A DNA stretch of 64,000 nt from a phage, in the NCBI GenBank assembly GCA_021537435.1, contig GCA_021537435.1_3050.1. One strand, 5' to 3'. The notes below the pieces were generated by a model that saw only the letters and a program-made list of their open reading frames with translations, did not search any database and had not been told where the DNA came from. The translations under genes and the position numbers were made by a program. Positions 3,784 to 60,440 of this stretch are shown here, one piece after another. The number at the start of each line of letters is the position of its first letter. Position 1 is the first letter of the stretch.

Positions 3784-4873
3784 CGTTATGTTCGATTGAG
3801 CTCGCTAATTCTCAATCCGTTCTCTTATGAACTGCTACATATTACTATGCAGACCAGACTATATCACAATCCCAGAGGGATTCTCCCCATTTCGAGTCGC
3901 TTGACCCTACGTCCGAAGACTAGTCGTTGAACCTTGCTTTGCAATTGTCGCCGTGCCATCGTTTATATGTTGATGGTGATAAATCTTTCTTATCACAATA
4001 TGGACAATTCAATTGAATTCTATTTGGATTTAATTTACATCTGTCATTATGTTTTAGATAAAATCCAGGACCTTTACCAATGTGACCACAGAAATCACAT
4101 GTGATTTCTTTTTGTGCAGGATGGGTCCCGTTCTTAACCATTTCTAATGTTTTTGCTGATGTTCTTTTCTTATGGTCTTCTGATAAGAAATGATGTGAAC
4201 CGTCATTTACCCGTTTTGATTGAGTTTCTGACTGCATTTTACCACCGCAAAATACATGAGTACCTTCTTTTATAGCTGCAATATTACGTTCTTTAACTTT
4301 TGCAATATGCTCAGCTTGTTGAAAATTATGTATACCTAATGCAACTCTATTTAAATTAGATTTACGCTGTATTTCACCATCTAAAAGATGAAATGTACCA
4401 TTTTCTATCTTAGATTTAATAGAGGCAATATTTTTAGCTCGTACTTCAGGGATATTAAAAATCTGGATTTCTCTAGATTTTGCGGCTTTAGAAGCTAATT
4501 CAGAAATTTCTTCAGGAGAATATTTCATTCTAAGCTTTATAGCATGACAAGCCTGGTAATCTTTTTGAGCTAAATGTATATCATAATGTTCCTGTATAGA
4601 AAGGCACATCAAATTATCTAAATCATTATTTTCACGGTTACCGTCTTTATGATGGATTTCGTATGTTCTTCCATCAGAATCTTTAGGTATAGGTCCGTTA
4701 GCATCTATCCAAATTTTTCTATAGTTCAATTGTGCATCCTCTTAAAAGTATAATCATATTTATATTATACTAATTAAAGGTGCAAGCAAAACCTTGGCTG
4801 CTAGTTTTCCATAAAGGACTTTCCAGCAATTAAAGGAGTTTTCGATAAACGTTACCGTTTAAAGGCGCATTTT
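3784..4873 (-). ncRNA. group I self-splicing intron in nrdB (about 1090 nt) carrying I-TevIII ORF
   Basis: NrdB reading frame interrupted after ...RFYVSFA plus split Cys codon; exon 1 ends in T and intron ends in G; HNH ORF inside. Confidence 0.7.
3920..4729 (-). CDS. intron-encoded HNH homing endonuclease I-TevIII, full length (269 aa)
   Basis: N-terminal HNH motif EIHHKDGNRENNDLDNLMCLSIQEH; C-terminal Cys-rich zinc finger; inside nrdB intron. Confidence 0.8.
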   Translation of the reverse strand: MNYRKIWIDANGPIPKDSDGRTYEIHHKDGNRENNDLDNLMCLSIQEHYDIHLAQKDYQACHAIKLRMKYSPEEISELASKAAKSREIQIFNIPEVRAKNIASIKSKIENGTFHLLDGEIQRKSNLNRVALGIHNFQQAEHIAKVKERNIAAIKEGTHVFCGGKMQSETQSKRVNDGSHHFLSEDHKKRTSAKTLEMVKNGTHPAQKEITCDFCGHIGKGPGFYLKHNDRCKLNPNRIQLNCPYCDKKDLSPSTYKRWHGDNCKARFND

Positions 4874-6406: not shown

Positions 6407-8671
6407 TCATAATTTACAGGATGAACAATCTTCAGCTTTTGGAGTTTCTATTTCATAATCATCAGTACCAGAACCATCACGGGTATTATGATAATAGAAA
6501 TTTTTTCCGCCAAAATACCAAAAGTACAAAAGGTCATCAATCATTACAGACATTGGAACCTTTCCTTTTGGAAAAATCTGCGGGTCATAATATGTATTTG
6601 CTGAAGCTGATTGACATACCCATTTAAGCATAATAGCTACCTGCGTAAGATAAGGTTTATTACCTTTCTTAGCTAATTTCCATGTATAATCATATAGGTC
6701 TATGTTATGTTCAATATTGGGCACGACTTGATTAAAGGAACCCTCTTTTGATTCTTTAACCGAGACTGGTCCACGTGGAGGCTCGATACCGTTTGTACTG
6801 TTAGAAACTTGGGAAGATGACTCACATGGCATAAGTGCTGATAATGTGCTATTACGGATGCCAAAGAGCTTAAGGTCTTCCCGCAGCGACGACCAGTCAC
6901 AAACGTATTTTGGAGCTGCGATTTGGTCAATCTTTTTATTGTACCAGTCGATAGGTAGTTCGCCTCGAGACCAACGAGTGTCTGAATAATATTCGCAAGG
7001 TCCTTTTTCTTTGGCGAGCTTAATGGATGCTTTAATGAGTCCATACTGTAATCTCTCAAATAGTTCATGTGTTAAATCGTTAGCATCTTCATAAGAAGCA
7101 AAGTTACTTGCCAGCCAAGCTGCATAGTTAGTAACACCTACACCAAGGTTACGACGCTTTTTAGCTTTTTCTGCTTCAGGAACTGGATATCCTTGGTAAT
7201 CCAAAAGATTATCAAGAGCACGAACTTGAACTTCTGCCAATTCATTAATTTTATCTTGGTCTTGCCAATCGAAGTTATCCAACACAAATGCAGATAACGT
7301 ACACAATCCAATTTCAGCATCAGGGCTATTCACATCATTTGTTGGAATAGCAATTTCACAGCATAAGTTACTCTGACGAATAGGTGCCTTTTCACGAATA
7401 AACGGAGTATAGTTATTCGTATTATCAATGAACTGTACATAAATCCTTGCTGTTCCTGAACGTTCAGTCATGAGCAATTCAAATAGTTCACGGGCTTTAA
7501 TACGCTTTTTACGAATATTAGGGTCTTTTTCTGCCGCTTCGTATAATTCACGGAAACGGTCTTGGTCTTTAAAATAAGAATAATAAAGCTCTCCACCCAT
7601 TTCATGGGGACTGAACAAAGTAATGTAATCGTTCTTTCCAAAACGTTCCATCATCAAATCATTCAGTTGAACACCATAATCCATATGACGAATGCGGTTT
7701 TCTTCTACGCCTTTGTTATTTTTCAAAACGAGAAGATTTTCAACTTCCAAATGCCAAATAGGATAATAAGCAGTAGCAGCGCCGCCACGAATTCCACCCT
7801 GTGAACATGATTTAACTGCAGTCTGAAAATGTTTCCAAAAAGGAATAACACCGGTATGGCGTACTTCACCCATGCCAATCTTAGAACCTTCGGCACGAAT
7901 CATACCAACGTTAATACCAATTCCAGCACGTTTGGAGATATATTCAACAATTGAAGCGGAAGCCTTATTGATAGACTTCAATGAATCTCCTGCCTCAATA
8001 ACAACACATGAACTAAACTGTCGAGTCGGAGTACGGCAACCAGCCATAATAGGAGTTGGCAATGAAATCTGTCGAGTAGATACTGCTTCATAAAAACGGA
8101 TAACATGTTTTAATCTATCAACAGGTTCGTCTTGATGCAATGCCATTCCAATAGCCATAAATGCAAACTGTGGAGTTTCATAAATTTGACCAGTGGTTTT
8201 ATCTTTAACTAAATATTTTTCTTTTAATTGCATCGCCCCGGAATAAGTAAATTCCATATCCCGCTCGTGCTTAATTTTTGATTCTAAAAATGTAATTTCT
8301 TCTGCTGAATATTTTGACAACAATTCAGGGTCGTATTTACCTTCATTTACACAGTAAGAAATATGGTCAATAAATGAACGTGGTTCATACTGCCTGTAAA
8401 CATGCTTACGAAGAGCGAACATTAAGCAGCGTGCAGCTACATATTGGTAATCAGGCTCTTCAACTGAAATAGAATTCGCAGCAGCCTTAATGACAATAGT
8501 CTGAATATCATCAGTTGTCATTCCATCACGGAGATAAGATTTAATATTTTCATATAATTCATAAGGATCTACTGATGTTCCCTCAGCTGCCCAAGATAAA
8601 ACTTTAATAATTTTTTGTGGGTCAAAGCTCTGAGAAACACCACTACTTTTGATAACATTAATTAATTGCAT
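6407..8671 (-). CDS. nrdA: ribonucleotide reductase large subunit
   Basis: 754-aa ORF; ATP-cone N-terminus and class I RNR catalytic motifs (NLCCEI, CESS); matches T4 NrdA length. Confidence 0.9.
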   Translation of the reverse strand: MQLINVIKSSGVSQSFDPQKIIKVLSWAAEGTSVDPYELYENIKSYLRDGMTTDDIQTIVIKAAANSISVEEPDYQYVAARCLMFALRKHVYRQYEPRSFIDHISYCVNEGKYDPELLSKYSAEEITFLESKIKHERDMEFTYSGAMQLKEKYLVKDKTTGQIYETPQFAFMAIGMALHQDEPVDRLKHVIRFYEAVSTRQISLPTPIMAGCRTPTRQFSSCVVIEAGDSLKSINKASASIVEYISKRAGIGINVGMIRAEGSKIGMGEVRHTGVIPFWKHFQTAVKSCSQGGIRGGAATAYYPIWHLEVENLLVLKNNKGVEENRIRHMDYGVQLNDLMMERFGKNDYITLFSPHEMGGELYYSYFKDQDRFRELYEAAEKDPNIRKKRIKARELFELLMTERSGTARIYVQFIDNTNNYTPFIREKAPIRQSNLCCEIAIPTNDVNSPDAEIGLCTLSAFVLDNFDWQDQDKINELAEVQVRALDNLLDYQGYPVPEAEKAKKRRNLGVGVTNYAAWLASNFASYEDANDLTHELFERLQYGLIKASIKLAKEKGPCEYYSDTRWSRGELPIDWYNKKIDQIAAPKYVCDWSSLREDLKLFGIRNSTLSALMPCESSSQVSNSTNGIEPPRGPVSVKESKEGSFNQVVPNIEHNIDLYDYTWKLAKKGNKPYLTQVAIMLKWVCQSASANTYYDPQIFPKGKVPMSVMIDDLLYFWYFGGKNFYYHNTRDGSGTDDYEIETPKAEDCSSCKL

Positions 8672-9228: not shown

Positions 9229-9540
9229 TTACACCGCCATTTTTCCTTTCAAGACGCCGTGGGACTGATAATCTTTGAGAACGAAATCTTTAGGCCTGAG
9301 TTTAAGAATGTATTCCAATTGTTCTTTAGTAGAAAGATAGCGGAATTTATAAGGCAATCCGCCTATTACCAGTTCACAAAGCTCTTTAGGTTCACGACGC
9401 AAAATTTCTTTACATTGTTCTACGTGATTCATATAGATATGAGTATTACCACCGGAAAATATCAAATCTCCCGGAATAAGATTACACATCTTAGCTACAA
9501 TATGAACTAACGTAGCATATGATGCAATATTAAATGGAAG
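9229..9540 (-). CDS. td: thymidylate synthase, exon 2
   Basis: LPFNIASYATLVHIVAKMCNLIPGDLIFSGGNTHIYMNHV... to stop; joins exon 1 to give 286 aa. Confidence 0.9.
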   Translation of the reverse strand, partial: LPFNIASYATLVHIVAKMCNLIPGDLIFSGGNTHIYMNHVEQCKEILRREPKELCELVIGGLPYKFRYLSTKEQLEYILKLRPKDFVLKDYQSHGVLKGKMAV

Positions 9541-10556
9541 CATTATGTTCAGATAAGGTCGTTAATCTTACCCCGGAATTATATCCAGCTGCATGTCACC
9601 ATGCAGATCAGACTATATCTCCAACTTGTTAAAGCAAGTTGTCTATCGTTTCGAGTCACTTGACCCTACTCCCCAAAGGGATAGTCGTTAGGCATTTATG
9701 TAGAACCAATTCCATTTATCAGATTTTACACGATAAGTAACTAATCCAGACGAAATTTTAAAATGTCTAGCTGCATCTGCTGCACAATCAAAAATAACCC
9801 CATCACATGAAATCTTTTTAATATTACTAGGCTTTTTACCTTTCATCTTTTCTGATATTTTAGATTTAGTTATGTCTGAATGCTTATGATTAAAGAATGA
9901 ATTATTTTCACCTGAACGATTTCTGCATTTACTACAAGTATAAGCAGAAGTTTGTATGCGAACACCGCACTTACAAAACTTATGGGTTTCTGGATTCCAA
10001 CGCCCGTTTTTACTTCCGGGTTTACTGTAAAGAGCTTTCCGACCATCAGGTCCAAGTTTAAGCATCTTAGCTTTAACAGTTTTAGAACGTTTCTTAATAA
10101 TTTCTTCTTTTAATGGATGCGTAGAACATGTATCACCAAACGTTGCATCAGCAATATTGTATCCATTAATTTTAGAATTAAGCTCTTTAATCCAAAAATT
10201 TTCTCGTTCAATAATCAAATCTTTCTCATATGGAATTTCTTCCAAAATAGAACATTCAAACACATTACCATGTTTGTTAAAAGACCTCTGAAGCTTTATA
10301 GAAGAATGGCATCCTTTTTCTAAATCTTTAAAATGCCTCTTCCATCTCTTTTCAAAATCTTTAGCACTTCCTACATATACTTTATTGTTTAAAGTATTTT
10401 TAATCTGATAAATTCCGCTTTTCATAAATACCTCTTTAAATATAGAAGTATTTATTAAAGGGCAGTCCTACAATTTAGCACGGGATTGTCTACTAGAGAG
10501 GTTCCCCGTTTAGATAGATTACAAGTATAAGTCACCTTATACTCAGGCCTCAATTA
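9541..10556 (-). ncRNA. td group I intron (1016 nt) carrying I-TevI ORF
   Basis: exon 1 reads ...QRSVDVFLG then in-frame TAA; intron 5' end TAATTGAGGCCTGAGTATAAGGTGACTTATAC... as in T4 td intron; ends ...ATAATG before exon 2. Confidence 0.85.
9688..10425 (-). CDS. intron-encoded GIY-YIG homing endonuclease I-TevI (245 aa)
   Basis: MKSGIYQIKNTLNNKVYVGSAKDFEKRWKRH... GIY-YIG motif; zinc finger and C-terminal DNA-binding region. Confidence 0.9.
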   Translation of the reverse strand: MKSGIYQIKNTLNNKVYVGSAKDFEKRWKRHFKDLEKGCHSSIKLQRSFNKHGNVFECSILEEIPYEKDLIIERENFWIKELNSKINGYNIADATFGDTCSTHPLKEEIIKKRSKTVKAKMLKLGPDGRKALYSKPGSKNGRWNPETHKFCKCGVRIQTSAYTCSKCRNRSGENNSFFNHKHSDITKSKISEKMKGKKPSNIKKISCDGVIFDCAADAARHFKISSGLVTYRVKSDKWNWFYINA

Positions 10557-11108: not shown

Positions 11109-11150
11109 GTACCTTATATAAATTATAATACATTTTATGAAGCTAAATAA

Positions 11151-11498
11151 TCAATACGGTTTAGCATCAAATTTTCTCTCAATTTCAGGCGTGAAATATA
11201 ATTCTTTACCGCGTTTGGAAAAGCGACCAATAATATGATAATTATTCTCATCAAACGTGATATTGCCGATATCCATAGCTTTCAACCAAATATCGATATT
11301 TCTATCCAACTTTATGTCAAAATTCCAATACGGAGAACTATTACCGAAAATACTGCAAGCGGATTCAGTAAAACAACTACTATAAATCTTGTCTTTAGGA
11401 ACTACTAATTGATAGACGCCTTTAATAAACTGAGGACCCTGCCATTTTGGTTGTTTCGCGTCTTTTTCTAATAGAATAGGGTAATAATTAAAATTCAT
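11151..11498 (-). CDS. hypothetical protein encoded by an insertion at the frd/td junction (about 115 aa; alternative GTG start at 11510)
   Basis: ORF MNFNYYPILLEKDAKQPKWQGPQF... fills a 410-bp spacer where T4 frd and td overlap; no motif recognised. Confidence 0.5.
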   Translation of the reverse strand: MNFNYYPILLEKDAKQPKWQGPQFIKGVYQLVVPKDKIYSSCFTESACSIFGNSSPYWNFDIKLDRNIDIWLKAMDIGNITFDENNYHIIGRFSKRGKELYFTPEIERKFDAKPY

Positions 11499-11516
11499 AT
11501 TTTCCGCCACGTGTTA

Positions 11517-12345
<829 letters not shown>

Positions 12346-12356
12346 TTTATCTCCTA

Positions 12357-12689
12357 TTAAAAAGGATCAGGAACATATCCACTAGCTTTAATCATTTTAA
12401 TTAATGTTACCATTCCTTTGTTAACTGCTTGTGAGATTTCATCAAAAACTTCATCATTAAAAAGTTCTAGCACACCCTTCTGAACTTTTAATTTACAGCC
12501 AACAATTTCGTCATCGCCTATAGTAAATTCATTACCGCCAATTCCACCGAAAAACTTAATTACCCCAGTTAACTGTCTTCCACGAGAATATGGGTCGTGC
12601 GATAAAGTAATATGAGTCACCCCAGGTACAGTTTTAAATTGGCAGCGGATGTTTACTTGAGCAATTCCAGTTACATGAATGTCAGACAT
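12357..12689 (-). CDS. hypothetical protein
   Basis: 110-aa ORF in early-gene array. Confidence 0.45.
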   Translation of the reverse strand: MSDIHVTGIAQVNIRCQFKTVPGVTHITLSHDPYSRGRQLTGVIKFFGGIGGNEFTIGDDEIVGCKLKVQKGVLELFNDEVFDEISQAVNKGMVTLIKMIKASGYVPDPF

Positions 12690-12942: not shown

Positions 12943-13051
12943 TTTATTCTCCTTAGCAAGCTTTAATCAAAAGATATAAACAGACCAACATAACTATTGC
13001 CATAATATAAGGTGCGAACATTTTCTTTTCTCCATTAGTTTTGATAGGGTA

Positions 13052-13080
13052 ATAGTATCACACTACTACCCTTTTGTAAA
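13052..13080 (-). promoter_or_regulatory. early promoter (sigma-70 type)
   Basis: rc TTTACA, 17 nt, TACTAT with A/T-rich upstream tract. Confidence 0.45.
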
Positions 13081-13467
13081 CTACTTTTTGAAAGTTTTTC
13101 GCAAAAGTTCAATGATTTCATCTACATTGTTTTCGTCAACAATGCAGTGAATTTTTGTCACGCCAGAAACTATACCTTCATTAGCGGATTGAGGCTTTTC
13201 TAAAGTTACCTCAGTAAAGTATTTGAATTCTTCAGAGTAAATCTCAAAATACGTCTCAAGTGGGCCACCCGCCATGTATTCAGTGCCATCTTCCATAGTT
13301 ACACGTACCACACATTCACCAGCACAATCATCACTTTCCATTTCATCTACAACAAAACTAGGCCCGTGCTTCTCTATTAAATTTAGCATCATTACATTGC
13401 AACGGCACTCGTTAGCAAAGTCATTTTTAAATAAAGGGTTAATGATATAAGTTTTTCCAACTTCCAT
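13081..13467 (-). CDS. hypothetical protein
   Basis: 128-aa acidic ORF; early promoter-like element upstream. Confidence 0.5.
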   Translation of the reverse strand: MEVGKTYIINPLFKNDFANECRCNVMMLNLIEKHGPSFVVDEMESDDCAGECVVRVTMEDGTEYMAGGPLETYFEIYSEEFKYFTEVTLEKPQSANEGIVSGVTKIHCIVDENNVDEIIELLRKTFKK

Positions 13468-13511: not shown

Positions 13512-13739
13512 TTATTGTTCAATTAATACCATGTAAAATTCTGTGTCTTCAGAATCCATACCATCACAATATTCATTAGCCATAAAGCGGGTGAGGTCTT
13601 CAAGAGGACCTTCAATAACGATTTGAATACTCCAAAACTTAGAATCTTGCACGCTTGTGATACTAAGTTCAGGATAACGATTACGAATAATTTCTTCGAT
13701 ATATTCAAAATCAACGATGTCAATATCAACTTTAGCCAT
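13512..13739 (-). CDS. hypothetical small acidic protein
   Basis: likely start [13 protein letters not shown]... with GAGGAAA RBS; the longer track ORF reads through the upstream promoter. Confidence 0.45.
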
Positions 13740-13782
13740 ATTATTTTCCTCTTTAATCATCAGCAGTATTGCCGATAGTTGT

Positions 13783-13811
13783 ATAGTACCACAGTTCTTA
13801 TAGTATGTAAA
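13783..13811 (-). promoter_or_regulatory. early promoter, conserved cassette
   Basis: rc GTTTACA, 17 nt, TACTAT; core CTGTGGTACTATACAACTATC shared with other copies. Confidence 0.5.
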
Positions 13812-13835
13812 CAACTTTGTGAAAAAATTTTTGAA

Positions 13836-13864
13836 ATAAAAAAAAGGGGACCTCTAGGGTCCCC
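13836..13864 (-). terminator. rho-independent terminator downstream of gene 32
   Basis: hairpin GGGGACC/GGTCCCC followed by U-run on the minus-strand transcript. Confidence 0.6.
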
Positions 13865-14795: not shown

Positions 14796-14869
14796 TTTTA
14801 TTTCCTTTTTAATTTAATTAACAGTTGGTGCTATGACGATGTATGACCTCATAGCTGGTCAGTAAGATA

Positions 14870-14894
14870 ATTATAATCTATTTATAATAAGCAA
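14870..14894 (-). promoter_or_regulatory. gene 32 leader promoters: MotA-box middle promoter overlapping a late TATAAATA
   Basis: rc reads TTGCTTA, 12 nt, TATAAT, with TATAAATA between; 75-100 nt upstream of gene 32 ATG. Confidence 0.5.
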
Positions 14895-29783: not shown

Positions 29784-30419
29784 TCACAGTTCAGATGCTA
29801 CGGTGATTACTGCTTCAATGTTTTCTGCCGAGCGTTTAATGTCAAGATACACATTACCGTTTTTAGCGATTTTACATGACATTCCGATATCAGTAAATTT
29901 CTGAATATGGTGTTCCATCATTTTGTATCCAAAAATTCGCATATTTCCATTGTTGTTAATTTCAAAATTGCGAATTCCGTGAGTGCGTTTTTCTAAAATA
30001 GCGAGATAGTTACTACGATAAGTTTCAACCTTTTTAAGAACAAATCCATTTTCATCTAAAAGTTTTAACATGAAGTCTTTATCTTCTTCCATATCAGAAG
30101 TAATCTCGCGAGCTTTACGAGTTGCTCGTTTTTTCAGCAGTTCAGGAGCATTTTCCTGTGCATATAAAGTTGCCGCATTTGAAATAATATCCTGAGCTTC
30201 ACCAGTAATGATTAATCCATCACCAGATTTCTCCACCAGGCCTTTTTTAATCAATACCCCAATATTACTATTAACTACTGCGTTACCTAAATCTGGATGC
30301 ACCTCACGAACTTCTGCAGCTGTAATGAAATCTTTCTTAGCAATGGTAATTAAAATCGCAGCAGTTTTTTCATTCAGAACATCGTTAGAAGCTTTGATGA
30401 TGTAAGTTACTTTAGACAT
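29784..30419 (-). CDS. motA: middle-promoter transcription activator MotA
   Basis: 211-aa ORF MSKVTYIIKASNDVLNEKTAAILITIAKKDFITAAEVREV... Confidence 0.85.
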   Translation of the reverse strand: MSKVTYIIKASNDVLNEKTAAILITIAKKDFITAAEVREVHPDLGNAVVNSNIGVLIKKGLVEKSGDGLIITGEAQDIISNAATLYAQENAPELLKKRATRKAREITSDMEEDKDFMLKLLDENGFVLKKVETYRSNYLAILEKRTHGIRNFEINNNGNMRIFGYKMMEHHIQKFTDIGMSCKIAKNGNVYLDIKRSAENIEAVITVASEL

Positions 30420-30460
30420 TTTCTAATCTCCGTAATTCTGTATCAGTAGTTGATAGTTGT

Positions 30461-30489
30461 ATAGTACCACAGTATGCTTTGGTTGTAAA
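30461..30489 (-). promoter_or_regulatory. early promoter, conserved cassette, upstream of motA
   Basis: rc GGTTTACA, 17 nt, TACTAT; near-identical to the copies at 34322 and 60412. Confidence 0.55.
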
Positions 30490-30511
30490 CCGTTTTGTGA
30501 AAAAATTTTTG

Positions 30512-30541
30512 AAATAAAAAAGGGAGAGCCGAGGCTCTCCC
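30512..30541 (-). terminator. rho-independent terminator
   Basis: hairpin GGGAGAGCC/GGCTCTCCC followed by U-run (minus strand). Confidence 0.6.
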
Positions 30542-30546
30542 TAAAA

Positions 30547-30696
30547 TTACTGCATGACTGTGATAACTGTCATGATAACACGTTGAATTCCGAACGCAAG
30601 AAGACCTCCTGCTATGGCAGGAACAACACCTAAACCCGCCAGTAAAATGCTACCAGATACTAATGCCGCGCTTGTAATACCAATGAATGGACTCAT
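30547..30696 (-). CDS. small hydrophobic membrane peptide (49 aa)
   Basis: rc ORF MSPFIGITSAALVSGSILLAGLGVVPAIAGGLLAFGIQRVIMTVITVMQ; ATG overlaps gene 52 stop; below track cutoff. Confidence 0.4.
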   Translation of the reverse strand: MSPFIGITSAALVSGSILLAGLGVVPAIAGGLLAFGIQRVIMTVITVMQ

Positions 30697-33250: not shown

Positions 33251-33469
33251 TCATTTTACACCATTCCAAATTGTTTCAACCGCAGATTTTAAGCCATTTT
33301 GATGAATGTCCATTCCGACAACTACCATCAAATAAATTCCAACTACAACTGAACCTAAGGCAAAAATCAGCATGAAAATGAATAAAGCCGGAAAAATATT
33401 ATCGAAAAACCATTCAATAAATGTAAAAGCACTGCGTTTACGCTTCATGTTTTCCTCACATAAATCCAA
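33251..33469 (-). CDS. hypothetical membrane protein
   Basis: 72-aa ORF with two hydrophobic helices. Confidence 0.4.
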   Translation of the reverse strand: MDLCEENMKRKRSAFTFIEWFFDNIFPALFIFMLIFALGSVVVGIYLMVVVGMDIHQNGLKSAVETIWNGVK

Positions 33470-33569
33470 AGTAAGCGTTTAATACATCAATCATTAAAAC
33501 GATTGGGAATATACTCAAAACTATTAGTATTATAACTACATTCCATATAGCTTTAACAATCTTTTTCAT
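33456..33569 (-). CDS. small membrane peptide (37 aa)
   Basis: start MKKIVKAIWNVVIILIVLSIF... with GGAGG RBS; the longer track ORF reads through the early promoter. Confidence 0.35.
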   Translation of the reverse strand: MKKIVKAIWNVVIILIVLSIFPIVLMIDVLNAYFGFM

Positions 33570-33597
33570 TTTCTGTTCCTCCGTAGTTGATAGGGTA

Positions 33598-33626
33598 ATA
33601 GTACCACAGAGGAACCGTCTTGTAAA
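33598..33626 (-). promoter_or_regulatory. early promoter, conserved cassette
   Basis: rc GTTTACA, 17 nt, TACTAT. Confidence 0.5.
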
Positions 33627-33811
33627 CAACTTTTTAAAAATATTCGTAATAAATGTGAATACCAATCACCACTGCCGAAACTTGCGCAACCCACCATGCA
33701 CAAGCAATAAGTACAGAATTCAAAATTTTCATAATAACCTCATTACAAAAGTAAATGTTAAACAAATTAATGGAATACTAATTAACCAAACGAAACACCA
33801 CCATAATGAAC

Positions 33812-34084
33812 TCATAGTTCAATCTCAGCGATTTTCATTTCATTACTATTAATAGCCGCTTTAAGACTATCTGAAAGAATTACATTCCAGTGGTCATTCA
33901 TATGACCATTAACTAAGCGTGTAATTTCTTCGGGAGTTGAAAAATAAGGCGTATCAGACTCCCAATGCGATAATCCCAAGCGAGTATAAATCATACCTTC
34001 ATCATCGCTAGAATATTCAACTGACACAAACTCATCAGTTATTTTATGTTTAGCGTAATAAAATTTAAATTTCATTTTACTCAA
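33812..34084 (-). CDS. hypothetical protein
   Basis: 90-aa ORF. Confidence 0.4.
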   Translation of the reverse strand: MSKMKFKFYYAKHKITDEFVSVEYSSDDEGMIYTRLGLSHWESDTPYFSTPEEITRLVNGHMNDHWNVILSDSLKAAINSNEMKIAEIEL

Positions 34085-34287
34085 TAATCCGCTAAAAGAT
34101 CGACGATTGCATCACGAAGACACTTATTCGCAATACGTTTAAGAGCAATTTCAGTTTCTGGAGCATTTTGAATAATCATTGAATTCAATTCAGCCTCAGC
34201 AAACTGAAGTTCTTTAACTAATTCAGCTTTATATTTTCCTTGCCCTTTCTTAGCTTTTGCTCGTTTTAATTCAGCTGTAGTAAACAT
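34081..34287 (-). CDS. hypothetical protein
   Basis: start MFTTAELKRAKAKKGQGKYKAEL...; early promoter upstream; track ORF uses upstream TTG. Confidence 0.4.
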   Translation of the reverse strand: MFTTAELKRAKAKKGQGKYKAELVKELQFAEAELNSMIIQNAPETEIALKRIANKCLRDAIVDLLADY

Positions 34288-34321
34288 TTTATTCTCCAAA
34301 TCCGTATCAGTTGATAGTTGT

Positions 34322-34350
34322 ATAGTACCACAGTCCTTGTGGTATGTAAA
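34322..34350 (-). promoter_or_regulatory. early promoter, conserved cassette
   Basis: rc GGTTTACA, 17 nt, TACTAT. Confidence 0.55.
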
Positions 34351-34368
34351 CCGTTTTGTGAAAAATTT

Positions 34369-34926
34369 TTAAATGGAAAGATACCATCCGTTGTAGTTGC
34401 TTTTTCTTACAACCTTACGAAGGTCTTCTCTATCACCGATGAACTTCGGAGTGTACTGGATGACACCTGGGTGAATTTCTTTAGTGTTGAATATAATTAT
34501 ACAGTCAGCGACCTGATGATTCAGAATAGGCCCTAGATTTATTCCAGAACCATATGGATACTCTCCGCTGCATCCTGTTGTTACAGAAATCCAACGTGAG
34601 TCAGTTTGATGTGTCTTAACTTCTACACGAAGCCCGCAGTATCTTGGATGCGCCAATACATCCCATGCGTATGTATACGGGTCATTAACATCCTCTTGGC
34701 CTTTGTTAACATACCCGCTTAGCCAATCTGCTACAAAAAACTCTGCGTACACCGCGATACGACATCTTTCGATAACTTCTGCTTTATCCTGGTTCGGGTT
34801 TTGTTTTAAAGAGTATCTTGCTGTATCAGCAATTTTGACCTTCATTTCACTAGTCAAGTCACTGTTCGATAGGGTAAATGTCGGAATCTGAAATAGTCTC
34901 TGTAAACCTGGATTCGTTTTCTGCAT
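34369..34926 (-). CDS. denB: endonuclease IV (dC-specific)
   Basis: 185-aa ORF at the T4 denB position between ndd and rIIB. Confidence 0.6.
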   Translation of the reverse strand: MQKTNPGLQRLFQIPTFTLSNSDLTSEMKVKIADTARYSLKQNPNQDKAEVIERCRIAVYAEFFVADWLSGYVNKGQEDVNDPYTYAWDVLAHPRYCGLRVEVKTHQTDSRWISVTTGCSGEYPYGSGINLGPILNHQVADCIIIFNTKEIHPGVIQYTPKFIGDREDLRKVVRKSNYNGWYLSI

Positions 34927-38845: not shown

Positions 38846-40666
38846 CTATTGGCTCATCCATTCTTTACGAAGATCAGCATTATCTCCCATGAGCATTTCA
38901 AAAAGCTCTTTCCAGTTCTCAGGAAGTTTAACAACATCATATACTGGGTTTTGAATCATCTCACGATATTCAGATTTTTCCAAAGAGCCAAGTCCTTTAA
39001 TATAACGGATGCTATGTTTAGGTAGAGCATCTTTGGCACTCTCATATTCAGCGACTGTATAAAACCATTCTTGTTTTTTACCGACCTGAGCGATGATTAC
39101 AGGAGTTTTGACAAAGCGAATTCTTCCTTGCTCAAACAATTCTGGCCAATTACTAAAAAATCCGAGCAGAGAAGGATAAATGCTTCCTAGACCATCATGG
39201 TCAGCATCAGTCATAATAGCGATATTATGATAATTCAAGTTTTCAGCTTTTTCACCGAGAACTAGACCAGTGATTGCGCAAATATCAAATAGTTCTTTGT
39301 TTTTAAGCATATCTGCATAAGACATACCCCAACTGTTGAGAACTTTACCACGTAATGGATAACCACCATGAAGTTCTTTATCACGAACATCAATAAGATA
39401 TCCGATAGCAGAATCACCCTCAGTCAAGAAAAGAGTAGTGTCAGCATCTTTACCGCAAAGATTCGCTTTAATATGTTTATGAACCTTTGCCTTAGAGGCC
39501 TTTTTAGCTGCTTTAGTTTCAGCTGCTTTTTCTGCTGCCAATTTACGAGCCAAGGCAGCTTCAATAATTGGCATCAAAATAGCTTCATTATTTAGAATAG
39601 CGCGTGAAATCTTTTTAGCATCAAGTTGAATATGACTACGAATTTCACCAAATGGAGAAGTCAAACGCTCTTTAGTTTGAGAGTCAAATCGCATGTTTTT
39701 CATATCGCGAACAAACATAACGATAGTCAAACATTCTTTAACACGTGCTTTAGTTACATCAATTTTGAATTTACGTTTGATTTGTGGAATAAGGTCTTCA
39801 CAAATATCATCCATAACACAGTCAATGTGATGGCCACCATTCTTAGTATGAATGTTATTGACGTACGTCAACTGACGAAAACCATCCGGTGAACGACCAA
39901 CCGCAATAGAACAATTTTCTTGTTCTTGAACAATAGCATGTTCATCATACTGTCGTGCATATTTCTTAAAATTGCCCTGAACCTTTTTACCATTAAAGGT
40001 AAATTGAATATCAGGATAAACAACTGCGAGTGTCTGGAGACGATCCAGTGTAATGTCAAGATAAACTTGGGACAGCTCATTAGTTTCAAATGACATAAAA
40101 TCAGGAATGAAAGTAACACGAGTTCCTTTCCATTTTCCAGGAATATCTTCCCATGATTTATTTTCCATGCCATTTGAACAACGAACTACAATATTATTTT
40201 GACCGTCGCCAGTTTCACCAACAAACATCACAGAAAAAATGTTTGTCAAACTAGAACCAACACCATTCATACCGCCAGTGACGCGTTCTTTATCATCACC
40301 AAAGTTACCACCTGCTTTTGGAATAGTCCATGCAGCAACAGGACCAGGAATTTCTTCACCAGTAGGTGTTTTAACCATAGCCTGTGGAATACCACGACCG
40401 TTATCTTCAACTGTTACCTGATTATTTTTAATAGTAACATTAATTTTATTTGCGAATTTAAACTTAGTACGAATACCTTCATCTACTGAGTTATCGATAA
40501 TTTCATCAATAAGCTTAACAAGACCAGGTACATACTGAACACTTTCCCATTTACCAAACAGAAAGCGCTCATGCATTTCATTAGCAGAAGAGCCAATGTA
40601 CATGCCGCTACGCTTTTTGATATGTTCAATATCGCTCAGAATTTTAATTTCATTCTTAATCATCAC
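38846..40666 (-). CDS. 39: DNA topoisomerase II large subunit gp39 (GyrB-like), single uninterrupted 606-aa ORF
   Basis: GHKL ATPase motifs (DNGRGIP) and TOPRIM region in one frame; no separate gene 60. Confidence 0.9.
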   Translation of the reverse strand: MMIKNEIKILSDIEHIKKRSGMYIGSSANEMHERFLFGKWESVQYVPGLVKLIDEIIDNSVDEGIRTKFKFANKINVTIKNNQVTVEDNGRGIPQAMVKTPTGEEIPGPVAAWTIPKAGGNFGDDKERVTGGMNGVGSSLTNIFSVMFVGETGDGQNNIVVRCSNGMENKSWEDIPGKWKGTRVTFIPDFMSFETNELSQVYLDITLDRLQTLAVVYPDIQFTFNGKKVQGNFKKYARQYDEHAIVQEQENCSIAVGRSPDGFRQLTYVNNIHTKNGGHHIDCVMDDICEDLIPQIKRKFKIDVTKARVKECLTIVMFVRDMKNMRFDSQTKERLTSPFGEIRSHIQLDAKKISRAILNNEAILMPIIEAALARKLAAEKAAETKAAKKASKAKVHKHIKANLCGKDADTTLFLTEGDSAIGYLIDVRDKELHGGYPLRGKVLNSWGMSYADMLKNKELFDICAITGLVLGEKAENLNYHNIAIMTDADHDGLGSIYPSLLGFFSNWPELFEQGRIRFVKTPVIIAQVGKKQEWFYTVAEYESAKDALPKHSIRYIKGLGSLEKSEYREMIQNPVYDVVKLPENWKELFEMLMGDNADLRKEWMSQ

Positions 40667-42198: not shown

Positions 42199-42468
42199 TT
42201 AATTAAACAGTGGAGCGATGCGTTTCAGAAGAGTAGCAGCACCTTTGGCGAATTTTACATCATGAAAAACAGTTTCTTCTTCCGTTACAACACGAGCTTT
42301 AATGTTTTCACAATCCCAATTTTTACGAACAATCTTCAAAAGCTGCAGTAAATCTTTACATTCAGCAATATCGATAACACATCCACGAGAATCTTCCATT
42401 ATCGCACGATAACCGTAAGCCATACCATAATCGTTGAAAGATTGCTCGATGATAATTAAGTTTTCCAT
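42199..42468 (-). CDS. hypothetical protein
   Basis: start MENLIIIEQSFNDYGMAYGYRAIMEDS...; track ORF uses upstream TTG. Confidence 0.4.
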   Translation of the reverse strand: MENLIIIEQSFNDYGMAYGYRAIMEDSRGCVIDIAECKDLLQLLKIVRKNWDCENIKARVVTEEETVFHDVKFAKGAATLLKRIAPLFN

Positions 42469-42565
42469 TTTATTCTCCAAGTTGTTTTCTGTATCAGTAG
42501 TTGATATTGATATAGTACCATAATCAACTACTGATGTATATAGTTTTATGAAAAAATTTTAAACT

Positions 42566-43054
42566 TTATGCATAGAGAGCATTGCTATAGTGTTTAATCC
42601 AACTTTCAGGAATGACTTTGTATGTTCCTAAAAATACCACATTGTACAACTTAACACCATCTTCTACCCATTGATCGGTAATATATCCACACATAGCGCG
42701 AGTATAAGCAGCCTTTCCATCATCTTTGATAAATTTAAATTCGCAAGGAGCAATGAACTTAATAGCTTGACCGAGTTTCCACTTAAAGTCTACGCCTACA
42801 TGCGAAGTATCAATCGTTTCAATTCCTTTAGCAGGAACAGCTTTCAAAAACACAGATTCAAGAAATTTCGCACGAACATAGCCAAACTGAGGTTTAGACT
42901 TTCCATCTTTAGGAATGATACGCACTTTTACTTCAGAATCTTCATCTTTAACGCCATGTTTAAGCTGAATGCTTACAATTTCGACCAATTTTCCTGCTGC
43001 TTTAGAGCGGGATTTATCAGATACACGAGCTAATTCACCAATATTAATAATCAT
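42566..43054 (-). CDS. motB: MotB-like DNA-binding protein
   Basis: 162-aa ORF, same length as T4 MotB; early promoter upstream. Confidence 0.55.
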   Translation of the reverse strand: MIINIGELARVSDKSRSKAAGKLVEIVSIQLKHGVKDEDSEVKVRIIPKDGKSKPQFGYVRAKFLESVFLKAVPAKGIETIDTSHVGVDFKWKLGQAIKFIAPCEFKFIKDDGKAAYTRAMCGYITDQWVEDGVKLYNVVFLGTYKVIPESWIKHYSNALYA

Positions 43055-43098
43055 AGTTATTTCTCACTTGTTAAAAAGATTTTATACTCCGCGGGACC

Positions 43099-43127
43099 AT
43101 TATACTCTGGTCCCAAGAGTTTGTAAA
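43099..43127 (-). promoter_or_regulatory. early promoter upstream of motB
   Basis: rc TTTACA, 17 nt, TATAAT. Confidence 0.5.
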
Positions 43128-43565
43128 CTAGCTTACACGAACATTAATCACTGCGCTGCGAGGAACTACGGAGTACTCTCCAGCATGAACTACATTAAGA
43201 AGTTCAACGCCATCTTCAATCCACTGGTCAGTTACCCAACCGCCAATCGGATTCGCGAATGGACGACGAATATAAACTGCCTTACACAACAAATCAGTCG
43301 GGTCTTCAGGTTTTTCAATTTCTGTCAATAGACTAAAATCTTTTTCATAAATAATAAGCGGTGATACCATTCCATAATAGTTTCTAATTTCAATATACAT
43401 CATACCGATAAGAATTCCGCTATTAACACTAATAACAGTAAAAGGATATCCGCCAGTTAAACCAAGAAGTTCACAAAACTTATTATGAGCTGTATTAGAC
43501 AGTACCGAAAAATTCTTAATTTCATCAAATTTTTTCAATTGATAAACAGCATTATTTTTAATCAT
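43128..43565 (-). CDS. MotB-like paralogue
   Basis: 145-aa ORF; C-terminal ...GGWVTDQWIEDGVELLNVV... parallels ...CGYITDQWVEDGVKLYNVV... in the adjacent ORF. Confidence 0.45.
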   Translation of the reverse strand: MIKNNAVYQLKKFDEIKNFSVLSNTAHNKFCELLGLTGGYPFTVISVNSGILIGMMYIEIRNYYGMVSPLIIYEKDFSLLTEIEKPEDPTDLLCKAVYIRRPFANPIGGWVTDQWIEDGVELLNVVHAGEYSVVPRSAVINVRVS

Positions 43566-43575: not shown

Positions 43576-44118
43576 TTAATCTAAGGTAATAAAGCCTTTT
43601 AATTCGGCATGGGATTTGCGGAACATTACTTGGTGCCCACCAATGATAACTTCATCTTCAGGAACTTCGTATACAGCAAGATAAAATCCTTTAGAAGCTA
43701 ATTCTTCACGCTCTTCTCGTGTGAACCATCTCATCATATCATATTCACTAGCGAAAGCAAAATGATAAAGAGCTATAAACCATCCTGGAATATAGTGATC
43801 TACGCCTACATATTCCTCTTTCTCAAATTTAGTATTAATTGCTATATTAGCATTTTTAACTAATAATTTGTCTTCGCGCGGAAGAGGAATTCTTTTGTTA
43901 TCATCACTATGATGCATAAAATTAGGTCTGCTATAACCTACCCGTAATAGCCACTCTTCGCTCCATGAATCTATTATACTCCTGTATGGCGTTATTTGAA
44001 CACAAAGATTTCGACGTATTGTTATAGCATCTTCATAATCAAGAATACTAAACGATGATTCAACACGATAAATTTTCATTTTATTATCCTCAGTAGCTAT
44101 GGTGTTATAATACCACAA
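43576..44118 (-). CDS. hypothetical protein
   Basis: 180-aa ORF; early promoter upstream. Confidence 0.45.
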   Translation of the reverse strand: MWYYNTIATEDNKMKIYRVESSFSILDYEDAITIRRNLCVQITPYRSIIDSWSEEWLLRVGYSRPNFMHHSDDNKRIPLPREDKLLVKNANIAINTKFEKEEYVGVDHYIPGWFIALYHFAFASEYDMMRWFTREEREELASKGFYLAVYEVPEDEVIIGGHQVMFRKSHAELKGFITLD

Positions 44119-44135
44119 CTAACCGAGGAAGTAAA
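44107..44135 (-). promoter_or_regulatory. early promoter
   Basis: rc TTTACT, 17 nt, TATTAT. Confidence 0.45.
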
Positions 44136-44142
44136 CAACTTT

Positions 44143-51764: not shown

Positions 51765-52283
51765 TCAATAACCTCGGTCTTGACGAGCGAAGTTTTCAGC
51801 ATTTTTCAGATAATAAAGTTTAAAGATTTCTTCAGCCGTAAGACCGAGACCTTGGAACATGTTCAGAACGAAATGAAGAATATCAATCATTTCGAATTTA
51901 ATTTCCAACTGGTCTTGTGGAGATAAGTCAGTAATCAGAGTTTCACGACGTTCACCGTGTTGCGACTTCCACGGCTTCCATACAGCAGATGCATCTTTTT
52001 CGCCATTGCTCATACCACCAAGAGAAGTCAGAAGTTCGCGGAATTCATCATCAATATAATCTTTCTGATTACGCAACCAATCAACAACTTCACCTGCAGT
52101 AGCCAAATCATCAGGATGACGGTTATATTCAGGTTTATCTTTAGCTAAACGAACCTGCAGAGATTTCTGCATATCAAGCATAACCTGCAGCGGGTCTTTT
52201 TCATCACCGAGAATATCCCAGTATTCATTTTGAGCTTTATCAGCACCTTCGATCAGTTGACTACATTCGTTAAAGTATGCCAT
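51765..52283 (-). CDS. 56: dCTPase/dUTPase gp56
   Basis: start MAYFNECSQLIEGADKAQNEYWDILGDEKDPLQVMLDMQ...; track ORF extended upstream. Confidence 0.85.
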   Translation of the reverse strand: MAYFNECSQLIEGADKAQNEYWDILGDEKDPLQVMLDMQKSLQVRLAKDKPEYNRHPDDLATAGEVVDWLRNQKDYIDDEFRELLTSLGGMSNGEKDASAVWKPWKSQHGERRETLITDLSPQDQLEIKFEMIDILHFVLNMFQGLGLTAEEIFKLYYLKNAENFARQDRGY

Positions 52284-52354
52284 TATTTTTCCTTTCAATT
52301 CATGGGTTAGTAGATTAATTATACAATAAATATATAAAGCAATAAGGAGGATAT

Positions 52355-54913: not shown

Positions 54914-54942
54914 AACAATCTCCTCATTTAACCAACAAGACT

Positions 54943-54971
54943 ATTATACCATAGTCTTGTCGGCTTGTAAA
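54943..54971 (-). promoter_or_regulatory. early promoter upstream of dmd
   Basis: rc TTTACA, 17 nt, TATAAT. Confidence 0.5.
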
Positions 54972-56399
54972 CTAAAATTTTAATTCATTCGCCAAAGCAT
55001 CTAACTGAGCTCGAGCGGATTCGTTTCTTTGATAGCGATTCTGTTCAGCCTGAATCTGCTGTGAACCTGCTACTTCGTTCACTTCGGTTGGAGTAGAATC
55101 TTGTTCAATTTCTACCCATTTCTGATTTCCTTTTTGAACACCCATCAAAAACTTATTCCATTTATTCTTATCACCATATCGTGATTTGATTTGCTTAATG
55201 AGTTGTTGTTCAGCAGCTGCTAGCTCCTCGGTTTCAATGACCGCAAGCATAAAATCGGCTGTTGCTGGAAGACCGGCAGATTCTGCAATATCGCTCATGT
55301 TAACATCAGAAGAATCCCAAGCTTGCTTACCAACCTGTGCTGCAGTCCAAAGAACAGTTTCAGTTTCAACAGCCAAAGCACGCAATTCTTCTGCGATGGC
55401 TTTAACAGTTGTGTAACTATTTTCTGAATAAACTCTGATGCGGCAAGATTTACAAATACCTAGATAGTCAACAATAATGATTGTTGGAACAAAATTCTTC
55501 TTGAGCTTCAATTCGTTTAAAAGAGATCGAAATGTATTAGCGTCTGCTCCACCAGTAGGATATTGCTTAACGATTAAACGGCCGAGAGTAGATTTCTCAC
55601 GCCATTTTTCCATCTTTCCTTTATATTCAGCGTAAGAAATATGCCCATCATCAATGTCATCAAGAGAAACATCAAGCATATTAGCATCAATACGCTTAGC
55701 ACAAACTTCTTCTGCCATTTCCATGGAAATGTAAAGAACGTTATGCCCGAGCTGCAAATAATCTGCTGCCAATGAACACAATCCTAATGACTTACCGACG
55801 TTAACACCAGCCATTAAAACGTTCAGTGTTCCAGTTTCAGCTCCGCCTTTAGTAATTTTATTTAGAATTTTGAGTTTAAATGGAACCTTACGAGCTTTAT
55901 TCATATAAGATAGCCAACGTGCTTCGTAGTCATCCATCCAATCATGACCAACGTAACTATCAAATGAAATTGATAATGCTTGGCGCATGATGTCAGGAAT
56001 AGCACCGACATCCGGCATTTTCTTATTTCGTTTTTCCGGAGGAAGCTCAGCATTAGTTTGAATTTCAATTATTTTAGACGTAGCATTAAACATCGCCCTT
56101 TGCTGAACATATTTTTCTGTTTCTTTTACTAACCAGCTGTGGTCTTCTGGAGAATCGGCTAGTTTCGAAATAAGTGTTTTTACACCAGAATATTCTGTTT
56201 CAGTAAATGAACTATTTTCTAATGCAACATTTAACGCATTAATAGATGGAACGCTATGGTATTCATTAACATGAGATTTAATTAATTTGAATGTATTTTT
56301 AGCTGGACCACTTTCAAAATATTCTGAATCCATATATGGCCAAACTTTTGAAAAATAAGCTTGATCAAATATGAGATGAGAAAGAATAATTTCTACCAC
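54972..56399 (-). CDS. 41: replicative DNA helicase gp41 (DnaB family)
   Basis: 475-aa ORF; Walker A GVNVGKS. Confidence 0.9.
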   Translation of the reverse strand: MVEIILSHLIFDQAYFSKVWPYMDSEYFESGPAKNTFKLIKSHVNEYHSVPSINALNVALENSSFTETEYSGVKTLISKLADSPEDHSWLVKETEKYVQQRAMFNATSKIIEIQTNAELPPEKRNKKMPDVGAIPDIMRQALSISFDSYVGHDWMDDYEARWLSYMNKARKVPFKLKILNKITKGGAETGTLNVLMAGVNVGKSLGLCSLAADYLQLGHNVLYISMEMAEEVCAKRIDANMLDVSLDDIDDGHISYAEYKGKMEKWREKSTLGRLIVKQYPTGGADANTFRSLLNELKLKKNFVPTIIIVDYLGICKSCRIRVYSENSYTTVKAIAEELRALAVETETVLWTAAQVGKQAWDSSDVNMSDIAESAGLPATADFMLAVIETEELAAAEQQLIKQIKSRYGDKNKWNKFLMGVQKGNQKWVEIEQDSTPTEVNEVAGSQQIQAEQNRYQRNESARAQLDALANELKF

Positions 56400-57927: not shown

Positions 57928-58004
57928 TCATTTTTTCCATAGGCATCATTATATTTTCCTCACTGGTTAAAGATAAAGTAATTATAACACAATAAATTTA
58001 GGCA

Positions 58005-58853
58005 TTAATCAACTGCTATTGGATGAATAGCATTAAACTTATGAAACGCTTCTGATTTTTCTTTGCGCGAAACACACATGCGAAGAACCTTTAATGGCTC
58101 ATCTTCTTCACCCAACGATTTTCTCTTTTCAATATTCGATGTTTTCCAACGAGCTTGCTCTGGAAACTCTCTATTGATTTGCTCAAGAGCTCTATTATGT
58201 TTTGAATTACTACGAATTGAACTACATCCGCCGGGAGCCTGTGCTTTTCCAGATACAACCAGATATTTGAACAAGGCCAAATGCGGATAACCTTGATTAA
58301 TTAAATTGAGAAATGCATACATATCTTCGCATAAATCAATTTTTCCATACCCAATTTGTTCTGTCGTAAGTTTTCCAAGGTCATACCATGTATTCGTGAA
58401 TCCATATGAATTTTCACGATAATTACCCCAAGATGAAGTAATTTTAAAAATAGGCAGACGAGCATGACCATGATAATACCCGCAATCCATGGCATCTTCA
58501 ACGTATTGAATCAATTCATAGAACTGTTCACGGGTTAATTGATTAATTTTATCTACGCAGCGACGATCATCTTTCTTTCGCATTGAACTCATACGAATAG
58601 TAGTATCATCATCAATCATCCAAATTCGTTGACCTGCATACATATCAGTAATTGCTTTACGAGTACCAGCAATTCCATTAACATCATCAGGAATAGTTAT
58701 AATTTTAGCTCTAGACCCATAAGCGTCATAATAAGCTTTTTCTTCGTGTTCACGTACTACAATATGTGGTTCATAATCAGTCGGAAACATATCAAGGGCA
58801 GAAACTGCCCCTACGCGTTGATAGCTTGGAATTACGAATTGAATCATTTCCAC
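58005..58853 (-). CDS. DNA glycosyltransferase, GT-A fold with DxD motif (likely T2/T6-type beta-glucosyl-HMC alpha-glucosyltransferase)
   Basis: 282-aa ORF with QRIWMIDDDTTI; sits at the T4 beta-gt locus between 42 and uvsX but does not resemble T4 beta-gt. Confidence 0.6.
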   Translation of the reverse strand: MEMIQFVIPSYQRVGAVSALDMFPTDYEPHIVVREHEEKAYYDAYGSRAKIITIPDDVNGIAGTRKAITDMYAGQRIWMIDDDTTIRMSSMRKKDDRRCVDKINQLTREQFYELIQYVEDAMDCGYYHGHARLPIFKITSSWGNYRENSYGFTNTWYDLGKLTTEQIGYGKIDLCEDMYAFLNLINQGYPHLALFKYLVVSGKAQAPGGCSSIRSNSKHNRALEQINREFPEQARWKTSNIEKRKSLGEEDEPLKVLRMCVSRKEKSEAFHKFNAIHPIAVD

Positions 58854-60377: not shown

Positions 60378-60411
60378 TTCATTCTCCAAATCCGTATCAG
60401 TTGATAGTTGT

Positions 60412-60440
60412 ATAGTACCACAGAGGAACAGTCTTGTAAA
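60412..60440 (-). promoter_or_regulatory. early promoter, conserved cassette, upstream of the imm.1-position lipoprotein gene
   Basis: rc GGTTTACA, 17 nt, TACTAT. Confidence 0.55.

Follow-up and report, generated by a model that had tools for sequence, protein, structure and literature searches.

The 64,000-nt stretch of phage DNA analysed here (the window) belongs to a Tequatrovirus, that is, a T4-like phage, and shows ~97% identity to phages ECP2301, ime09, and RB14; its 29.5–35.5 kb region is 96–97% identical to these three Tequatrovirus genomes. The gene order of the window is that of T4, with colinearity running from ~134.7 kb of the T4 map past the map's end and on to ~30.6 kb, and genes lie on the minus strand throughout except for tail-fibre genes 34–38, which lie on the plus strand. 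Compared with T4, this phage has no counterpart of the segG, 60.1/mobA, and segF segments or of T4 16.8–17.7 kb (dam), and 946 nt of unrelated sequence stand in place of the segA/beta-gt segment. Segment differences from T4 are positioned at 14858–14894, 39181–39246, 51766–51802, 52323–52344, and 57915–58862, and extra segments relative to T4 occupy 4181–4656, 11109–11510, and 12121–12677.

Positions 30430–30545 form the intergenic region between motA.1 (30547–30696) and motA (29784–30419). Read on the minus strand, the region opens with a hairpin that begins 5 nt past the motA.1 stop codon, upstream of the motA promoter (RNA fold −21.1 kcal/mol, z −6.0), and closes with a GGAG Shine–Dalgarno sequence at 30428–30431 ahead of the motA ATG at 30417–30419. 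The elements between motA.1 and motA are as follows.

30521–30542, minus strand: intrinsic terminator, AGGGAGAGCC-UCGG-CUCUCCCU with a U-run behind it; 9 base pairs, of which 6 are GC (terminator scan)
30491–30520, minus strand: A/T-rich UP block of the motA cassette, TTTTTTATTTCAAAAATTTTTTCACAAAACG (from the sequence)
30484–30490, minus strand: −35 element of the motA cassette, GTTTACA (sequence pattern)
30461–30469, minus strand: extended −10 element of the motA cassette, TGG-TACTAT (sequence pattern; TG before the hexamer)
30420–30454, minus strand: predicted motA leader, with the putative start A at 30454, 7 nt after the −10

A repeat finder locates nine 70-nt copies of this block in the window (13043, 13774, 30452, 33589, 34313, 42503, 44098, 47957, and 60403). 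Four of these, at 13774, 30452, 34313, and 60403, share the 20-mer TGTGGTACTATACAACTATC exactly on the minus strand and are referred to here as the core copies; at least three others are diverged. The first-pass annotation had noted further copies near 13780, 33590, and 42500, and the repeat finder groups at 13774, 33589, and 42503 bear this out. The 32-mer CCGTATCAGTTGATAGTTGTATAGTACCACAG is exact at 34302–34333 and 60392–60423 (chance expectation 0), and the 26-mer TGTAAACCGTTTTGTGAAAAATTTTT is exact at 34345 and 60435, with one mismatch at 30484 (chance expectation zero). The repeat is real and far beyond chance. The claim that the 30430 block recurs almost verbatim near 34300 and 60380 holds for those two sites, where the quoted strings are found letter for letter, but not for the 30430 copy itself, which reads CCGTAATTCTGTATCAGTAGTTGATAG... 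and has indels within its leader. Likewise, the description of the copies as near-identical is apt for exact blocks of 43, 26, and 25 nt but not for the copies as wholes: pairwise alignment of the three named copies (30430, 34302, and 60392) gives only 76–80% identity over ~100–110 nt, since the blocks are interrupted by spacers with almost nothing in common. Comparison anchored on the −35 and −10 gives 72% identity for the four core copies and a mean of 42% for the window's remaining early promoters. Because the spacers are completely divergent, the copies are not recent duplicates.

Each copy stands in front of a gene. Designated by the position of the −35 element, the copies precede motA (30490), a 68-aa ORF (34351), imm.1 (60441), frd.3 (13812), and ndd.4 (33627), and the diverged copies also include those before frd.1 (13081) and an 89-aa ORF upstream of cef (42541). 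The cassettes other than that of motA, and the terminators associated with them, are listed below.

34285–34382, minus strand: cassette before the 68-aa ORF (34081–34287); −35 34345–34351, −10 34322–34327, predicted start 34315, ATG 34285–34287
60375–60472, minus strand: cassette before imm.1; −35 60435–60441, −10 60412–60417, predicted start 60405, ATG 60375–60377
about 60529–60546, minus strand: gene 43 terminator, AGGGACC-UCCG-GGUCCCU with a trailing U-run, located ~90 nt 5′ of the imm.1 −35
13737–13864, minus strand: cassette before frd.3; −35 13806–13812, −10 13783–13788, predicted start 13776
13846–13864, minus strand: gene 32 terminator, GGGGACC-CUAGA-GGUCCCC, within the frd.3 cassette
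33567–33660, minus strand: diverged cassette before ndd.4; −35 33621–33627, −10 33598–33603, predicted start 33591
13019–13112, minus strand: diverged cassette before frd.1; −35 13075–13081, −10 13052–13057, predicted start 13045
42466–42575, minus strand: diverged cassette before the 89-aa ORF between motB and cef; −35-like ATATACA 42535–42541, −10 42512–42517, predicted start 42505

Hairpin terminators had been proposed to follow several copies. They are present at three copies, but they lie 5′ of the promoter in the sense of transcription and follow the block only when the plus strand is read. A terminator hairpin was looked for at the 34351 and 33627 copies and none was found; the 34351 cassette adjoins the denB stop codon, has no upstream terminator, and carries in its spacer a weak 7-bp palindrome, TACCACA-AGGAC-TGTGGTA. 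The diverged copies contain stems of a different kind. In the ndd.4 cassette, the spacer segment GGUUCCUCUGUGG (33604–33616) is complementary to the Shine–Dalgarno segment CUACGGAGGAACA (33574–33586), with a fold of −19.6 kcal/mol (z −3.0) and a duplex of −22.1 kcal/mol (z −3.6). A hairpin formed by AGGGUAGUAGUG and UACUAUUACCCU spans the −10 of the frd.1 cassette (fold −18.2 kcal/mol, z −4.7), and a 13-bp stem of CAUCAGUAGUUGA and UCAACUACUGAUG encloses the −10 of the 42541 cassette (fold −20.2 kcal/mol, z −5.0). The imm.1 cassette has its T4 orthologue at 27,0xx. The frd.3 promoter (window 13783–13812 compared with T4 146,8xx, L002:15876) differs from that of T4 at 8 of 17 spacer positions, while the flanks are ~95% identical; the T4 spacer, AGCATAAAGCTTTATGG, is a perfect palindrome, and that of this phage, TACTATAAGAACTGTGG, is close to the 34351 spacer. 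In two IMG/VR genomes, the T4 frd.3 spacer is also found at other loci.

On the minus strand, the order of the unit is an A/T-rich UP block, GTTTACA, 17 nt ending in TGG, TACTAT, a leader of ~28–45 nt, a GGAG-type Shine–Dalgarno sequence, and ATG; the promoter anatomy originally proposed (UP element, GTTTACA, 17 nt, TACTAT) is found as claimed. The pattern GTTTACW-N17-TANNNT occurs 18 times in the window against 0.81 expected, and 17 of the 18 lie on the minus strand, which is the early-transcribed strand. The named copies fit GTTTAC(A/T)-17 nt-TAYWAT, with the exception of 42541, which has ATATACA at the −35. The copies at 30489, 33626, and 34350 have TG ahead of the −10, TGG standing directly before TACTAT, and the 30 nt 5′ of the −35 are 73–87% A+T in the six copies scanned (13081, 13812, 30490, 33627, 34351, and 60441). 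Copies 13812, 30490, 34351, and 60441 have in common the block ...TTTTTCACAAAAC(N)GTTTACA, and AAAAATTTTTTCACAAAAC agrees with the E. coli UP consensus. The consensus of the early promoters in the window extends into +1 to +14. The −10 hexamer TACTAT matches TATAAT at four of six positions, and a scan of the window with a generic sigma-70 consensus returned 74 sites compared with 72.7 in shuffled sequences, which is no enrichment, so that the argument relies on the T4-specific pattern together with orthology. The cassette sequences fit the published PST/T4 promoter consensus, TTTACW-N17-TAYWAT (PMC4122927), and T4 early promoters have been described as UP, −35, TGn, and −10 elements with extra consensus regions (Hinton 2010, PMC2988021). 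All copies are oriented with early transcription and lie directly 5′ of a Shine–Dalgarno sequence and ATG, and all copies checked have T4 orthologues in the same intergenic sites; motA itself is an early transcript in T4 (bioRxiv 10.1101/2024.04.04.588121). The early-promoter reading of the first-pass annotation is thus consistent with every sequence test run (consensus, TGn, UP block, strand, Shine–Dalgarno–ATG position, and T4 orthology), and the blocks are very probably T4-type early promoter cassettes read on the minus strand.

Strong RegB sites have the consensus GG*AGRAYARAA (Uzan & Miller 2010, PMC3014915). Matches to GGAGRAYARAA are complete (11/11) in the predicted RegB sites of the 68-aa-ORF and 89-aa-ORF leaders and reach 10/11 in motA, imm.1, and frd.1; ndd.4 has 8/11, and frd.3 is without GGAG. 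At the level of individual 3′ ends, GGAGAATAAAA, GGAGAATGAAA, and GGAGATTAGAA agree with 10–11 of the 11 RegB consensus positions, GGAGATTAGAA being that of motA with 10/11. RNA folding of the leaders of the core copies gave no significant structure. In this consensus, the leaders resemble the RegB-sensitive translation initiation regions of T4 early mRNAs and may likewise be cleaved.

Beyond the window, the cassette occurs in 400 phage records at 687 places in a phage GenBank collection, all of them T4-like phages of enterobacteria; the 20-mer scan of IMG/VR comprised nine stretches only. Upstream of motA, the order of terminator hairpin, TTTTTCTCACAAAAC, GTTTACA, N17, and TAYTAT is kept in relatives with only 52–70% MotA identity, which argues for functional constraint. 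In two loci whose MotA is 52% identical (L022/L023), the hairpin GGGAGC-TTCG-GCTCCC is followed by a block, TTTTTCTCACAAAACAGTTTACA, that is nearly the same as that of the window. A MotA box was considered in the motA promoter spacer of relatives and rejected: TGCTT is present, but it is not spaced from the −10 as a middle promoter would require.

Such conservation could also reflect a binding site. If TCACAAAAC beside the −35 and ACAACTATCAAC downstream of the −10 formed an operator for a phage factor, the factor might act, for example, in early shut-off or in Alt-dependent stimulation. T4 early promoters have consensus positions beyond the sigma-70 and alpha-CTD elements, with the basis of Alt stimulation unexplained (PMC2988021), and early shut-off still lacks a mechanistic explanation (PMC3014915); in addition, the UP-proximal TCACAAAAC upstream of motA appears to be under strong constraint, being conserved at 52% MotA protein identity (L022/L023). 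However, these positions fall inside the normal footprint of RNA polymerase, in the proximal UP subsite and the initial transcribed region, and this is enough for their conservation. Neither a candidate binding protein nor dyad symmetry was seen in the blocks, and they are present in only ~4–6 of the window's 18 early promoters, so that we regard an operator as very unlikely.

Dispersed copies with exact blocks of 25–43 nt might also come from a small MITE- or REP-like mobile element whose likeness to a promoter is coincidental. We rejected this reading, to which we give hardly any credence: terminal inverted repeats and target-site duplications are absent, all copies are oriented with transcription and end exactly at the Shine–Dalgarno–ATG, the internal spacers are unrelated, and the positions are orthologous across the genus. 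An Rfam search of the whole window matched no family.

T4 early promoters have reportedly been reviewed by Miller and colleagues in 2003 and by Wilkens and Ruger in 1994. Those upstream of T4 motA, imm.1, frd.3, and ndd.4 have the same elements on the same strand at the same intergenic positions as in this phage, and the window copies are 82–100% identical to them; the window differs only slightly, by a 3-nt leader indel, another frd.3 spacer, and other ORFs behind two cassettes. Composite units of terminator, early promoter, and Shine–Dalgarno–ATG in T4-like phages have been named PeSL and proposed to serve modular shuffling (Arbiol 2010, PMC2839356). They have been described in the T4/PST pair, where the exchange of ndd.4/.5 for ORF268/269 was illustrated (Comeau 2014, PMC4122927), and the site of this published exchange falls at ~33.4–34.3 kb of the window. 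The cassettes resemble PeSLs in combining a terminator or stem–loop with an A/T-rich region, an early promoter, a Shine–Dalgarno sequence, and an ATG in plastic regions, and, qualitatively, in adjoining ORFs that differ between close relatives. The stem–loop is supplied either by upstream terminators (30521–30542, 13846–13864, and 60529–60546) or by straddling stems (33627, 42541, and 13081). Unlike the published units, not every window copy has one, 34351 offering only its spacer palindrome. The cassettes are therefore already known, as T4 early promoters or PeSL cassettes, and their recognition here is a rediscovery.

The ORFs behind these promoters vary among relatives, as T4 and five IMG/VR genomes show. 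At three loci in seven genomes, orthologous sites have one and the same cassette but differing ORFs behind it: imm.1 alternates with an ORF beginning MKIVMGCLAV..., motA with one beginning MKFKIENEIV..., and at the 34351 site the 68-aa ORF alternates with MKFKFYYAK... or with an MKIAEIEL remnant. Of the two ORFs of 68 and 90 aa that follow the 34351 cassette, T4 has neither (window 33812–34299 compared with T4 166,997–167,025; L001:6985–7120) and keeps an 8-codon remnant, MKIAEIEL followed by a stop, that is identical to the C terminus of the 90-aa ORF and overlaps the start of ndd.6. This remnant, downstream of denB, looks like a deletion scar, and the junction at which the two ORFs are lost, AAT(A/G)AAATG, lies at the 3′ edge of the cassette. 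Behind the 42541 cassette, T4 has a 200-bp deletion that starts from the ATG (window 42199–42468 compared with T4 6,483–6,652, L003). Four IMG/VR relatives carry an extra 78-aa ORF behind the gene 43-side cassette and ahead of imm.1, each of its junctions being marked by ATGAAAAT, and in three relatives the motA cassette is separated from motA by an additional ORF and a second promoter.

Two of these loci show further details. A remnant of the 89-aa ORF persists in T4 as an unannotated, frame-shifted MENSLKVLILF followed by a stop, behind the same promoter. In three IMG/VR Tequatrovirus genomes with 100% identical MotA (L013–L015, ~9,540–10,000; also L007), the motA.1 terminator and a window-type promoter would drive the extra ORF MKFKIENEIV..., and in L013–L015 motA has a second, different early promoter, so that tandem cassettes flank a single ORF, which is the PeSL arrangement.

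The first-pass annotation had called the cassettes potential recombination substrates, which is the published PeSL hypothesis. Alternatively, the copies might be early promoters and nothing more, kept similar by selection for a very strong promoter and leader, with recombination incidental and no commoner than at other gene boundaries. The flanks are conserved while the spacers are unrelated between copies, as this would predict, and the UP/−35 block is conserved across genera at motA. Of 17 indels relative to T4, most of which are homing endonuclease genes or tail fibres, 2–3 abut a cassette, as random placement gives in this window (P=0.43). Two indel junctions do lie ≤6 nt from a cassette ATG (P=0.016), in a post hoc comparison whose null is random positions and not gene starts. 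These junctions end in 8–9 nt of microhomology at the Shine–Dalgarno–ATG and not in a second full cassette, which again suits a purely promoter-based account. Such an account does not, however, predict the exchanged ORFs behind the same cassette in the seven genomes, nor the identical 17-nt spacers found at non-orthologous loci. The imm.1 cassette also carries four clustered changes specific to the window relative to six orthologues, all four of which match paralogous cassettes of the same genome and suggest a gene-conversion tract. Moreover, deletion circles between neighbouring PeSLs have been demonstrated experimentally in RB49/phi1 (PMC2839356). Recombination at the cassettes is thus supported qualitatively, without enrichment of indels relative to T4, and we consider promoters alone a credible explanation, though the less probable one.

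We therefore favour an immediate-early expression unit in which both processes take part. In this model, host sigma-70 RNA polymerase would bind the UP element, the −35 GTTTACA, the 17-nt spacer ending in TGG, and the −10 TACTAT, and transcription would start at an A 7 nt 3′ of the −10. The resulting leader of 35–40 nt would end in a GGAG Shine–Dalgarno sequence matching the cleavage consensus of the phage nuclease RegB, and with such a sequence the downstream gene would be on at once and silenced within minutes. The motA, frd.3, and imm.1 copies, situated just 3′ of the intrinsic terminator of the preceding gene, form the terminator–promoter unit published as PeSL. The similarity of the copies would be kept mainly by selection on the positions contacted by polymerase and on those of the leader, given that the spacers can vary freely. 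A second contribution would come from occasional exchange from one copy to another, homologous or microhomology-mediated, allowing ORFs to be inserted, deleted, or swapped directly behind a cassette. We infer promoter activity, start sites, RegB cleavage, and ongoing recombination from the sequence, and on this basis each cassette is read as a portable immediate-early unit that would combine upstream insulation, a very strong promoter for the host polymerase, and a leader for rapid inactivation.

A separate observation concerns early promoters, two of the diverged copies of the first-pass annotation among them, with dyad symmetry straddling the −10. In these, the spacer, lying 5′ of the predicted start, is complementary to the downstream leader or Shine–Dalgarno sequence, so that both the −10 and the predicted start fall within the stem. 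The stems are of two kinds.

1598–1662 (alc), 33574–33616 (ndd.4), and 44079–44136 (motB.2): spacer–leader stems, fold z −3 to −6
42505–42541, 43060–43128 (motB), 54915–54972 (dmd), and 13020–13081 (frd.1): stems enclosing the −10, fold z −3 to −6

Within the window, spacers pair better with their own leaders than with other leaders (P=0.016). At the alc promoters of nine genera, the stem is kept with different sequences, and its two arms covary. The mean duplex energy there is −15.7 kcal/mol for cognate pairs compared with −10.3 kcal/mol for non-cognate pairs (permutation P ~1e-5, nine genera). In a hand-registered count, which itself leans towards the structure, standard pairs fill 70 of 84 cells, and at least two pair types are seen at 8 of 14 positions. 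The motB.2 spacer–leader stem is also present in three genera (Tequatrovirus, Dhakavirus, and Mosigvirus). None of the 4 promoters that have a terminator carries a straddling stem, compared with 7 of the 14 that lack a terminator, a difference that is not significant (Fisher exact, ~P=0.11). The four core copies have no spacer–leader stem and mostly lie 3′ of terminators instead.

These stems raise the possibility that a subset of early cassettes (alc 1662, ndd.4 33627, and motB.2 44136) uses the −35/−10 spacer as an anti-Shine–Dalgarno arm. In RNA reading through from upstream, the ribosome site and the RegB site would be masked by the spacer stem, and RNA from the cassette's own promoter would be missing the 5′ arm and would remain open. 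A review of post-transcriptional control in T4 names e, soc, 49, and I-TevI as the only genes with masked starts of this type, each with an internal late promoter (PMC3014915). The alc, ndd.4, and motB.2 starts are alike in having the Shine–Dalgarno sequence paired with sequence 5′ of the predicted start, a feature that the four core copies do not share. In the published cases, however, the promoters are late and translation is delayed, whereas here the internal promoter is early and the 5′ arm is the −35/−10 spacer. Stem–loops between or over promoter boxes were noted in RB49/phi1 and read as terminators (Arbiol 2010, PMC2839356), and in the T4 literature examined we found no description of anti-Shine–Dalgarno spacers at early promoters. 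They may be the only new element in these data, and we put them forward tentatively, thinking it rather doubtful that the idea is both correct and not already described. If true, translation of alc, ndd.4, and motB.2 would be confined to the few minutes of early-promoter firing, and the spacer stem would act as an insulator in cassettes that have no upstream terminator.

The cassettes have direct consequences for annotation, since they mark true gene starts and remove spurious N-terminal extensions. Such extensions had been predicted to arise from the copies and to share the peptide FLCGTIQLS. Two ORFs are indeed extended in this way, and the remaining copies generate either no extension or one of 4 codons only; the peptide itself occurs once, in ORF 59997–60566, and its variant FLCGTITLS once, in ORF 33456–33665. 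The 189-aa ORF 59997–60566 is really the 126-aa imm.1, and ORF 33456–33665 is really ndd.4. Starts behind cassettes are easily over-extended by mechanical ORF calls and in at least one deposited annotation: in Escherichia phage AnYang the alc CDS (L041) has an annotated start 15 nt upstream of the ATG proximal to the Shine–Dalgarno sequence, through the promoter. In a phage with no promoter annotation, the cassettes would also delimit the early transcription units, and for phage engineering they may offer compact insulated expression modules that are fast on and fast off. For the evolution of T4-like phages, they provide one more example of the published PeSL picture, which they leave unchanged, in which ORFs would be gained and lost behind a conserved promoter–leader.
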